Virus record (IMG/VR): IMGVR_UViG_2609459839_000002
Origin: a virus
Lineage: Duplodnaviria; Heunggongvirae; Uroviricota; Caudoviricetes
Reading direction: 5' to 3' (one strand)
Length of the DNA stretch: 4,727 nucleotides
The notes under the pieces: model-generated
The model's input: the letters and a program-made list of their open reading frames with translations, nothing else
What the model was told of the DNA's origin: nothing
The model's database searches: none
Program-made: the position numbers and the translations under genes
In this document: positions 2,129 to 3,994 of the stretch, piece by piece
Layout: each line of letters opens with the position of its first letter
How positions within the stretch are numbered: the stretch's first letter is position 1

Positions 2129-2683
2129 TCAATTATCTAAAATTGTGCTAAATCTTTTTATTACCATTAAGAACGTTATAACAGTGATAAAAAAGGATGT
2201 ATAGGCTAAAAAGCTAACAATATATGCAGGTGCGCGAAAATACCATTTCATTAAATCCACTGCATTGTCAGGCAGGAAATATATTATCACTGAAAATATA
2301 ACCAATACTATTGAAGTTAATATTGCATAAGCGACGTTGTGGCATAACTGCTCATATATGGTTTTGTTAGTGTTTAATGATATCAATTTGTCTCGGGATT
2401 TGTTTCCTTCAATTATGTCTGATATCTTAGTGATGGTTTTTTGTTTTTGTTCATAAATCATTATTACTGCACTCATTAATAGTGCTGTTGTAATAGCCCC
2501 GAAGTTAACGAAGACGGAAGCAATTGCCGGTTTCATTATTCCGTATGTCCGGCACAGAACGAAAGAAAGAGATAACGGAACAATAAAATGTACGATAATG
2601 TCGCTCATCAACATTGTTCCACGCTGATCTGACATTGTTTTGTAGTGTTTTATTATTACACCCAGCACATTTATTTTATTCAT
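2129..2683 (-). CDS. Four-helix integral membrane protein, 184 aa; candidate membrane effector of a two-gene RexB-like module
   Basis: ORF in track. Four hydrophobic segments (about residues 28-47, 52-75, 111-135, 150-175). ATG overlaps the upstream gene's TGA (ATGA at 2680-2683). SD-like GGGGTGA lies upstream on the minus strand. Very AT-rich. Confidence 0.6.
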   Translation of the reverse strand: MNKINVLGVIIKHYKTMSDQRGTMLMSDIIVHFIVPLSLSFVLCRTYGIMKPAIASVFVNFGAITTALLMSAVIMIYEQKQKTITKISDIIEGNKSRDKLISLNTNKTIYEQLCHNVAYAILTSIVLVIFSVIIYFLPDNAVDLMKWYFRAPAYIVSFLAYTSFFITVITFLMVIKRFSTILDN

Positions 2684-3612
2684 ATAATCACCCCTTTGTT
2701 TCCGCTATGCAGTTCTAACAATATATCATTAGAAAGGTTTTTTATCGTGTCATGAAGTGCTGTTAGATCAGGTATGCCTGTTAATGGGTCGATTTTTAAA
2801 TCATTATCATCTAACTCTGCGGAAATTCCTTTTTTTAGTATGGTCTCATAATTGAAAACGACAGTCCGACTGCCGAGTTGTAAGCTTACTTTTATTGCAT
2901 CACATTTATCTTCAATAATCTCAATGATGTTTCCTATATTCTTGTTTCTTAAATCTCTGAAACTTCCGAACACGCCATCGTTTGCTTTTATTATTAAGTC
3001 TGTCTTGATGTTTGTTTTGTTTTGACCAAAGGAATCAGCAATGTCTTTTGGTGCTTTATATCCTTGAGCCTTAATTTGTTTTAATTCGGAATTGAGAATA
3101 TATTGAGGGATTTTCTTATGATGTAATGGATTGATTCTTGCTTCGAGTTGAAATTTGTTTTTTAGATATTCAGTGATAGAATCAGAAAGGACACCTCGAG
3201 CAGAAATATTATCGCAAGAGTGGAATGCAATAATTCCTTCTTTAAGGGCGTCTGGTAGGTATATTAAAATATAACGTTCTTTGAGTGTTACATCATAAGC
3301 AGTTGTCGTATAGTGGATTTTTTTGAGTTTTACATCTTTTATTTCACTGCTTTCTCCATATTTCCCAACTTTTATATAACCATATATAATTTTCTTTGAG
3401 TTATCAAAGTGAAGTTTAGCGTGTTGTTCCAGAGATATTTTAGTTTTGGATACGCCAAACTCGATGGGGGTGTTTTTATATAGAGTAAAATAATCAACAA
3501 AAAGTTCATATGCCGTTTTTTTATTACTTAAACCCAATTCATTAAGTTTTTTGCTGGCTCGACTGCCTTTATGGGTCAATACGCGGAATGAATAGAAATT
3601 AACGCTGTGCAT
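2680..3612 (-). CDS. Soluble 310-aa protein of unknown function; candidate sensor/activator (RexA-like position) of a two-gene module
   Basis: ORF in track. AAGGA lies 7 nt upstream of the ATG on the minus strand. Lys/Ile/Asn-rich, no transmembrane segment. Translationally coupled to the downstream membrane protein gene. The N-terminus (NFYSFR...KGSRASKKL) faintly resembles my recollection of lambda RexA (GFYATYRSKNKGKDKRSINL); unverified. Confidence 0.6.
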   Translation of the reverse strand: MHSVNFYSFRVLTHKGSRASKKLNELGLSNKKTAYELFVDYFTLYKNTPIEFGVSKTKISLEQHAKLHFDNSKKIIYGYIKVGKYGESSEIKDVKLKKIHYTTTAYDVTLKERYILIYLPDALKEGIIAFHSCDNISARGVLSDSITEYLKNKFQLEARINPLHHKKIPQYILNSELKQIKAQGYKAPKDIADSFGQNKTNIKTDLIIKANDGVFGSFRDLRNKNIGNIIEIIEDKCDAIKVSLQLGSRTVVFNYETILKKGISAELDDNDLKIDPLTGIPDLTALHDTIKNLSNDILLELHSGNKGVII

Positions 3613-3636
3613 GAAAAGTCCTTTTGAACATATAGG

Positions 3637-3663
3637 AGTATACTAGAACATAAATAGATGCAA
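3637..3663 (-). promoter_or_regulatory. Candidate sigma70 promoter for the minus-strand operon (TTGCAT, 15-nt spacer, TATACT)
   Basis: On the minus strand, TTGCAT corresponds to + 3658-3663 and TATACT to + 3637-3642. Spacer is short (15 nt). Motif reading only. Confidence 0.2.
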
Positions 3664-3994
3664 TGCATAAAGGAAAAGCTACCGCAGGGCGAACTCACCC
3701 ACCGATAACTCTTAACTGGTTGTTTGTAAAAGATAATACATAAATTTGGGTCTGTGTAAAGAGGTAAGCATCGTCAGGGCAAGGGAGATGTGTTAGGCAA
3801 TATTGGTAAAATTTACGTTGAAGATAAAAACGGTTTGCGGGAAAAGGAGAGTTAAGTAGAATTGCTGCGGGTGCTTGAGGCTATCTGTCTCAGGCATGAA
3901 CACCAAAAGGCAGATAGAGAAAAGCCCCACCCGACTATAAATCGAAGTGTACTGCACCCATTTTGTTGGACGATGAAATGGAATAGCCCCTAAT

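Follow-up and report, generated by a model that had tools for sequence, protein, structure and literature searches.

The subject of this analysis is a pair of genes, called here A and B, on a stretch of DNA of 4,727 nucleotides (nt) from the IMG/VR virus record IMGVR_UViG_2609459839_000002 (Caudoviricetes), and this whole stretch is referred to as the window. Both genes lie on the minus strand and probably constitute a defence pair of the Rex type. That two minus-strand genes overlap here by the nucleotides ATGA had been claimed in an original prediction made from the sequence, and this was confirmed by the list of open reading frames (ORFs) and by the sequence itself. The interval given in that prediction, 2129-3670, leaves out the likely promoter. 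The features of the locus are as follows.

2680-3612, minus strand: gene A, 310 amino acids (aa), ATG start; basic cytoplasmic protein with a predicted RexA/RdgC-like fold; SclA-like, proposed sensor

2129-2683, minus strand: gene B, 184 aa, ATG start; inner-membrane protein with an N-terminal amphipathic helix and four transmembrane (TM) helices; SclB-like, proposed pore-forming effector

2680-2683, minus strand: ATGA overlap of the gene A stop codon and the gene B start codon, read from the sequence; translational coupling

3619-3623, minus strand: Shine-Dalgarno sequence AAGGA of gene A, 6 nt upstream of the start codon, conserved in E. coli EC11

2690-2695, minus strand: Shine-Dalgarno-like sequence AGGGGT of gene B, within the 3' end of gene A, read from the sequence

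3613-3732, minus strand: conserved 5' leader of the operon, 120 nt, about 88% identical to the EC11 copy

3733-3760, minus strand: candidate sigma-70 promoter, TTTACA and TATTAT with a 16-nt spacer, 10 of 12 consensus positions matching and both hexamers conserved in EC11; it was identified only by its match to the consensus, and in total such sites are no more frequent than expected by chance

2100-2117, minus strand: GC-rich hairpin GUCGCCC-UUUC-GGGCGGC between convergent gene ends; weak candidate for a bidirectional terminator

The hairpin has a fold energy of -17.1 kcal/mol and a z-score of -1.7, it is without a U-tract, and it was absent from the output of the terminator scan.

The chance of finding 310 and 184 open codons at the local base composition is about 2e-11 and about 4e-7, respectively. 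When gene A was compared to the 77%-identical copy in E. coli EC11, the ratio of non-synonymous to synonymous substitutions (dN/dS) was 0.053, and in gene B, compared to the EC11 copy, dN was 0.17 and the synonymous sites were saturated. Because of these open-codon odds and the comparison to EC11 we conclude that genes A and B are real and under purifying selection. That they might be chance ORFs or pseudogenes was considered and is ruled out by the dN/dS of about 0.05. Between the two E. coli versions, in which the synonymous sites of the coding regions are saturated, promoter and leader together (3613-3760, minus strand) agree at about 88% of positions, and this conservation reflects either a regulatory function or a nearby recombination boundary.

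Protein A has an isoelectric point of 9.2 and is without a hydrophobic segment, the maximum 19-residue Kyte-Doolittle mean being 1.06. It had been described as a hydrophilic protein with no assignable motif, and this description held, as neither A nor B gave a meaningful match in Pfam, NCBIfam or PADLOC 2.0, and the same was true of their distant homologues. The only matches of the two proteins were to PHROGs of unknown function, and a search of PDB sequences with the single proteins and with profiles returned nothing. In a word-indexed search protein A yielded a narrow family from Enterobacterales of 33 clusters, and repeating this search with a broad alignment did not bring additional members. 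At a cut-off of E<=1e-3, an exhaustive search with a hidden Markov model (HMM) of the A alignment retrieved 576 sequences, each representing a 50%-identity cluster, and 117 of them passed E<=1e-10. These representatives are nearly all 300-320 aa long, and a Pfam domain was found in none of 137 diverse members of the superfamily (E<=0.01). The AlphaFold model of A, with a predicted local distance difference test score (pLDDT) of 78.9 overall, above 90 in the N-terminal domain and weaker in the middle region, is made up of a beta-rich domain (residues 1-162), a beta/alpha domain (170-267) and a terminal helix (283-301). When this model was compared by Foldseek to the BFVD database, it matched uncharacterised phage proteins of 277-322 aa, with E values down to 2e-14, and an RdgC-like 'recombination-associated protein'. 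The uncultured phage Siphoviridae sp. ctylc9 was the second-best BFVD match for A and also for B. From the model, protein A is predicted to have a RexA/RdgC-like two-domain fold.

In protein B there are four hydrophobic segments above 2.0, at approximately residues 23-47, 52-77, 112-145 and 151-182. Its AlphaFold model (pLDDT 85.3) consists of a short N-terminal helix followed by four long helices, and helices 2 and 3 project as a cytoplasmic hairpin. Hydropathy and model thus bear out the four TM helices that had been predicted for the 184-aa protein. Basic residues are concentrated at both termini and in the central loop, and therefore, by the positive-inside rule, the topology is N-in/C-in. 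Conserved motifs of B are KINxxxIxxxH, NFGAITTALL..IYDQ, NICYAILTS and TFLMxxKRF, and a proline in TM1 and a C-terminal LKR(F/I)H motif are also conserved. Protein B matches phrog_15250. The word-indexed search gave 60 clusters for B, which is somewhat wider than for A, and the search of BFVD by Foldseek gave weak matches only, the best with an E value of 0.12. Whether B could be a transporter or a holin was also considered and this was rejected, as the family matches were sub-threshold (Pfam E 0.025-0.44, all under the curated cut-offs, and a second PHROG at E 0.023).

Genes A and B are translationally coupled and strictly co-inherited. In 13 of 13 sequence-diverse loci, gene A has downstream of it, on the same strand and in most cases overlapping by 4 nt, a gene for a homologous four-TM B of 161-201 aa. 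Among the loci are a Yersinia plasmid-like contig, the tail module of a myovirus prophage, SGI1-type islands, metagenomic contigs (19-26% identity), an island in a Halomonas metagenome-assembled genome (MAG), a Col-type plasmid, an Acinetobacter phage-plasmid and a Pf phage, and the co-occurrence of B was scored in those sampled loci that had readable downstream sequence. Among the IMG/VR contigs with close relatives, 24 of 26 carry an intact B and the ATGA overlap. In the other two, both prophage contigs (L071 3930-4187 and L072), B is frameshifted at residue 85 and A is intact, which suggests the occasional loss of a costly effector. The A-A and B-B identities co-vary, with a Pearson coefficient of 0.95 and, among the distant pairs, a Spearman coefficient of 0.68. 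One contig, L011, was a candidate for a solo A gene and was rejected because its sister contig, L012, shows a B homologue.

The carriers of this cassette are of many kinds. It was found in lambdoid prophages at the ompW and potC sites and in a Salmonella lambdoid prophage remnant that also has SieB (L058). In the 11-kb filamentous Pf phage of Pseudomonas, PfAC16 (L059 412-1883), the pair lies at the left end beside the repressor, and it was the only pair found beside a repressor; its proteins are of 311 aa and 179 aa, their genes overlap by 4 nt, and they score 303 and 134 bits with the family HMMs. In a P4-like satellite of the Enterobacter cloacae complex the pair is at the cargo end. It is also present in SGI1/PGI1-type integrative mobilisable islands (L052 11765-15318 and L053-L055), which have TraG, TraH, an MpsA-like integrase and a resolvase, and there it abuts a complete IetAS system (IetA E 3e-78, IetS E 2e-22). 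The Serratia plasmid EBP3064_p2 (L020), a mobilisable plasmid of the Col(Ye4449) type of 5,746 bp, contains mob genes and rep, and its cargo is made up of the A/B pair, which is the principal part, and a RelE/ParE pair. On the Yersinia plasmid-like contig the pair is accompanied by a ThsB-like TIR protein and a ShosT-like protein, elsewhere it has a type II restriction-modification fusion and a putative AbiC as neighbours, and in the Halomonas MAG it lies in a small island of genes without a Pfam match. The cassette is mobile and is associated with defence genes. The architecture of a soluble protein followed by a four-TM protein, which had been proposed to be RexAB-like prophage cargo, therefore holds over the superfamily, on many unrelated mobile carriers, and the proposed check of the neighbourhoods of homologues turned up defence genes in the form of IetAS, the ThsB-like TIR protein, restriction-modification and the putative AbiC.

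It was also observed that the variable end of the SGI1/PGI1-type islands acts as a small defence island, that plasmid EBP3064_p2 is a minimal natural vector of the A/B module, and that the position of the PfAC16 pair is a lambda-like immunity-region location in an inovirus.

One of the known systems with which A/B was compared is RexAB of phage lambda (PDB 8TWQ). RexA is a dimeric protein that binds DNA non-specifically and has an RdgC-like fold, in which a split globular beta-sheet domain carries an inserted dimerisation domain and is followed by a C-terminal helix, and RexB is taken as the membrane effector (PMC11077077). The domain order of lambda RexA and that of the A model are identical. 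Both systems combine a soluble protein of about 300 aa with a small inner-membrane protein of four TM helices, whose gene comes second on the same strand, and both are prophage cargo, expressed in the lysogen in lambda and predicted to be so here. The two systems differ in that A has 310 aa compared to 279 in RexA and B has 184 aa compared to 144 in RexB, and protein B is set apart from RexB by an additional N-terminal helix, which is cytoplasmic and conserved, and by a long cytoplasmic hairpin between helix 2 and helix 3. Genes A and B overlap by 4 nt whereas rexA and rexB are separated by a gap of 15 nt. No match to Pfam RexB was found for protein B of the window. Although the A/B pair resembles Rex in its architecture and, as modelled, in the RexA fold, by sequence it forms a family of its own, outside the RexA and RexB families. 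In the course of these searches 100%-identical lambda rexA was seen on short contigs of many unrelated reference genomes (L022-L051), among them those of Shewanella, Kitasatospora, Capnocytophaga and Bradyrhizobium, and these contigs are almost certainly spike-in or cloning contamination of public assemblies. RdgC itself (PDB 2OWL) is a stand-alone housekeeping gene without a membrane partner, and A has no sequence match to it.

A closer likeness is that to Sucellos (SclA/SclB), which was described from cassette 68 of the superintegron of V. cholerae N16961 (Darracq et al., Science 2025; preprint 10.1101/2024.07.02.601686). Sucellos needs both genes and is equipped with a promoter of its own, in models SclB forms a TM pore, infected cells die early, and the anti-Sucellos factor is a phage pentapeptide-repeat protein (Darracq et al.). 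It has been reported to be structurally RexAB-like without a Pfam match, and its homologues to occur 'preferentially in prophages… often in Salmonella' (Darracq et al.). Calls of Sucellos by DefenseFinder cover about 98% of S. Enteritidis PT1/PT4 isolates and one P4-like satellite of E. cloacae. Like Sucellos, A/B is a two-gene cassette with a RexAB-like structure, without a Pfam match to RexA or RexB, and with a TM protein as the second product, and where Sucellos is reported to have its own promoter, A/B has a candidate one. The clusters of A/B at >=90% identity contain E. coli and Salmonella, including serovar Enteritidis, the Salmonella copy lies in a lambdoid remnant and the Enterobacter copy in a P4-like satellite, and this distribution matches the one reported for Sucellos. 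The two differ in their location, as the window copy is in a lambdoid prophage of E. coli and V. cholerae Sucellos is in an integron. Judged by the published description and distribution, the window pair is likely to belong to the Sucellos family.

A third system of this shape is RexABpp of prophage P1 of P. putida (PP_5643/PP_5644), in which RexApp and RexA match by HHpred with a probability of 98%, RexApp binds DNA, and RexBpp leads to membrane damage upon overexpression of RexApp (PMC12894663). Whereas RexApp reaches RexA by HHpred, the A profiles fall short of significance with a RexA profile of 7 sequences. The N-terminus of RexBpp, MLIGQLANP, is without the M-x-K-I-N...H motif of the B family, and a DNA pattern of rexABpp made from the published primers had zero matches in genome, viral and metagenome contigs.

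The explanation that we favour, with a probability of about two in three, is that A/B is a self-contained, mobile two-gene anti-phage module of the Rex type, most probably of the Sucellos family, with its own promoter in the lysogen. The two genes would be expressed from this promoter in the lysogen, on the strand opposite to the early genes of the prophage. Protein A would be a basic cytoplasmic protein, probably a dimer, that clamps DNA non-specifically and senses DNA made by the infecting phage, such as an intermediate of its replication or recombination, or a complex of protein and DNA. Upon activation A would engage B, the four-helix inner-membrane protein, which may be supplied in a fixed ratio through the translational coupling. 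B would then oligomerise to form a pore or channel, the membrane would depolarise or leak, and growth would stop or the cell would die, so that the infection is aborted. It is by analogy with lambda RexAB, RexABpp of P. putida and Sucellos of V. cholerae that we infer the DNA binding, the activation of B by A, the formation of a pore and a defence phenotype of the E. coli copy. The pentapeptide-repeat protein that counters Sucellos would fit with A as a DNA clamp if it acts as a DNA mimic, as pentapeptide-repeat proteins do.

There are several observations that count against this explanation. The C-terminal half of the A model is of moderate confidence only (pLDDT 41-80). The window pair is at the boundary of the replication and nin genes whereas lambda rexAB lies beside cI. 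The faint resemblance to RexA that the original prediction had seen in the N-terminus of A was not borne out statistically. No match to Pfam RexA was found for A of the window (E<=1) or in the 137 superfamily members (E<=0.01), and when the A superfamily was aligned by hhalign to RexA as a single sequence and as profiles of four and seven sequences, the best E value was 0.017 with a probability of 2.6%. This best alignment is collinear, with A 106-249 on RexA 83-236, which is a different region, and it is not significant. Nothing significant came from aligning B to RexB either, be it a single sequence or a profile of four or seven sequences, and the hhalign E values were 0.15-0.26. Scored with the family HMMs, genuine RexA proteins reach about 0-3 bits and genuine RexB proteins stay below 0, and neither lambda RexA nor RexB was among the top 50 Foldseek matches in BFVD. 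The proposed comparison of A with RexA was thus borne out as to the domain order but not as to a significant sequence match or a place for lambda RexA in that top 50, and the one of B with RexB had a negative outcome. Finally, identity with Sucellos (V. cholerae SclA/SclB) or RexABpp (P. putida PP_5643/5644) is circumstantial, being judged from the published descriptions.

The A/B family might instead be an independent and unnamed superfamily that is neither Sucellos nor RexAB, with an RdgC-fold DNA sensor and a four-helix membrane effector. In that case the Rex architecture would have been reached separately or by divergence beyond recognition, and the pair could have a trigger and effector logic of its own, including one in which A is the effector. 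We consider this unlikely. The original prediction had offered an undescribed exclusion system as an alternative, and this is probably wrong, since the properties of the pair match those of Sucellos, a system described in 2024-2025.

It is also doubtful, though worth weighing, that the roles of the two proteins are reversed, that is, that A is a DNA-binding antiviral effector which blocks phage replication, recombination or late transcription and B is its sensor, anchor or sequestering partner. RdgC modulates recombination, and the DNA-clamp fold of the RdgC/RexA type that is modelled for A would suit such an effector. In the mycobacteriophage Butters the gp30/gp31 pair has a RexA-like effector that is only restrained by the RexB-like protein (PMC12894663). 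The most conserved parts of B are cytoplasmic, namely the N-terminal helix with K3 and H13 and the LKR(F/I)H motif, and they would suit docking or signalling as well as a pore. What speaks for B as the effector is that this role, or that of a predicted pore, falls to the membrane protein in lambda, P. putida, CarolAnn, Sbash and Sucellos, and that some prophages have a frameshifted B, as would fit an effector that is toxic and costly. A reversal of roles would resemble Kiwa, which has a membrane sensor, KwaA, and a DNA-binding effector, KwaB. Like A/B, Kiwa is a two-gene system in which a small membrane protein with four TM helices is combined with a soluble protein of about 310 aa that is DNA-associated. 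In PADLOC no match to KwaA or KwaB was found for A or B (E<=1) or among 10 distant A homologues, and DUF4868, the KwaB domain, was found in none of the 137 superfamily members. With no match to the KwaA/KwaB and DUF4868 models, and a gene order opposite to that of Kiwa, in which kwaA precedes kwaB whereas the soluble gene is first here, Kiwa was rejected as the identity of the pair, and these findings count against a reversal of roles as well.

A third possibility, which we regard as improbable, is that the pair is a stabilisation, addiction or competition module for its mobile element, with B as the toxin and A as the regulator, and that any effect on phages is secondary. In favour of this reading are the pair's place as main cargo on a 5.7-kb plasmid, the hok/sok locus immediately next to it in lambdoid prophages, and its presence on islands and satellites that gain from post-segregational killing. 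The small plasmid, however, already has RelE/ParE, and A, with 310 aa and a conserved two-domain RexA-like fold in the model, is unlike known antitoxins. Moreover, the systems that look like A/B protect in a phage-specific manner and its neighbours are defence systems rather than maintenance genes.

Least probable of all is that A serves the biology of the prophage, in the lysis-lysogeny switch or in RdgC-like recombination, with B as an accessory and defence not the selected function, for although lambda RexA biases the bistable switch without RexB (PMC11077077), the PfAC16 pair is beside a repressor and a Ren-like (DUF977) gene adjoins the pair in several prophages, the pair is also found on elements that have no lysis-lysogeny switch, such as the Col plasmid, the SGI1-type island and the Halomonas MAG island, and the strict coupling of A and B argues for a joint function.

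As to the surroundings of the pair in the window, the GC content is 0.31-0.36 over 1650-3750 compared to 0.48-0.59 in the region of the replication genes to the left. The left flank contains the C-terminus of a replication initiator and genes of DUF977, DUF4406 and DUF4752. In the right flank there is a copy of the insertion sequence (IS) IS150 which is 100% identical to annotated copies and begins near 3949 (3949-4727), and the pair is therefore, as had been described, in an AT-rich island between replication genes and an IS. An otherwise identical copy free of the IS was found in E. coli E275a, in a lambdoid prophage that occupies the ompW site, where the order is the DUF4752 gene and a 70-aa ORF, the A/B pair, hokD, and then DUF968, rusA and Q, and a diverged copy was found in another lambdoid prophage, at potC, between DUF977 and hokD. 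The neighbours of the pair in the window, as in L001, L002 and L058, are DUF977 or the replication genes on one side and hok/nin on the other, and not the CI repressor. The module is present in 37 of 5,426 complete E. coli genomes and is annotated as hypothetical in all 37. Several of these genomes, E24377A among them, are what we take to be enterotoxigenic E. coli (ETEC) strains.

Just upstream of the operon there is a full-length match to the sok antisense RNA of Rfam (RF01794) at 3869-4024 on the plus strand, which at 82.6 bits is above the gathering threshold. This match runs about 75 nt into IS150 and that may reflect the choice of seed sequences of the model. The IS-free copies (L001, L002 and L058) have an intact hokD after the A/B pair, and therefore in the window IS150 interrupted the hok/sok locus.

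The DUF977 gene, at 782-1204 of the window on the plus strand, at 11408-11830 in L002 and at 11646-11975 in L058, carries the phrog_142 label 'Ren-like exclusion protein'. In lambda, Ren shields the phage from its own Rex system. Situated near or next to a Rex-like pair, a Ren-like gene might confer self-immunity upon induction, or its proximity may come merely from a shared insertion hotspot. The 70-aa ORF at 1878-2090 on the plus strand (phrog_4659, of unknown function) is in the same AT-rich island as the pair but is distributed separately, as Stx-converting phages and phage vB_EcoM-Ro157c2YLVW have this ORF but not the A/B pair, and it is absent beside the pair of EC11.

In the copy of RefSeq dated 30 September 2026 the annotation of A and B is 'hypothetical protein'. 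No publications citing the accessions of A and B or their PHROG identifiers were found, and the DefensePredictor paper, in its text and 12 supplementary files, does not mention the four RefSeq accessions that the pair has in L001 and L002. The A and B genes should carry the label of a Sucellos/Rex-type defence pair.

Rex was the first abortive-infection system to be discovered. The Rex-like interpretation of the original prediction is supported, and the A/B pair is best regarded as a putative E. coli prophage member of the Sucellos/Rex-type kind and is probably not an undescribed system; if it is Sucellos, the window pair is a diverged, prophage-borne member of that family. The analysis contributes the size of the superfamily, the range of its carriers and the gap in its annotation, and it shows the Rex-shaped module to be far more widespread than the narrow sequence family of lambda RexAB, with at least 576 diverged clusters. 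The compact and coupled E. coli version, found in ETEC-type strains, would be convenient for studying how a RexA-like clamp senses its trigger and how its membrane partner is opened, and the Ren-like gene and hok/sok next to it suggest links to self-immunity that are testable.

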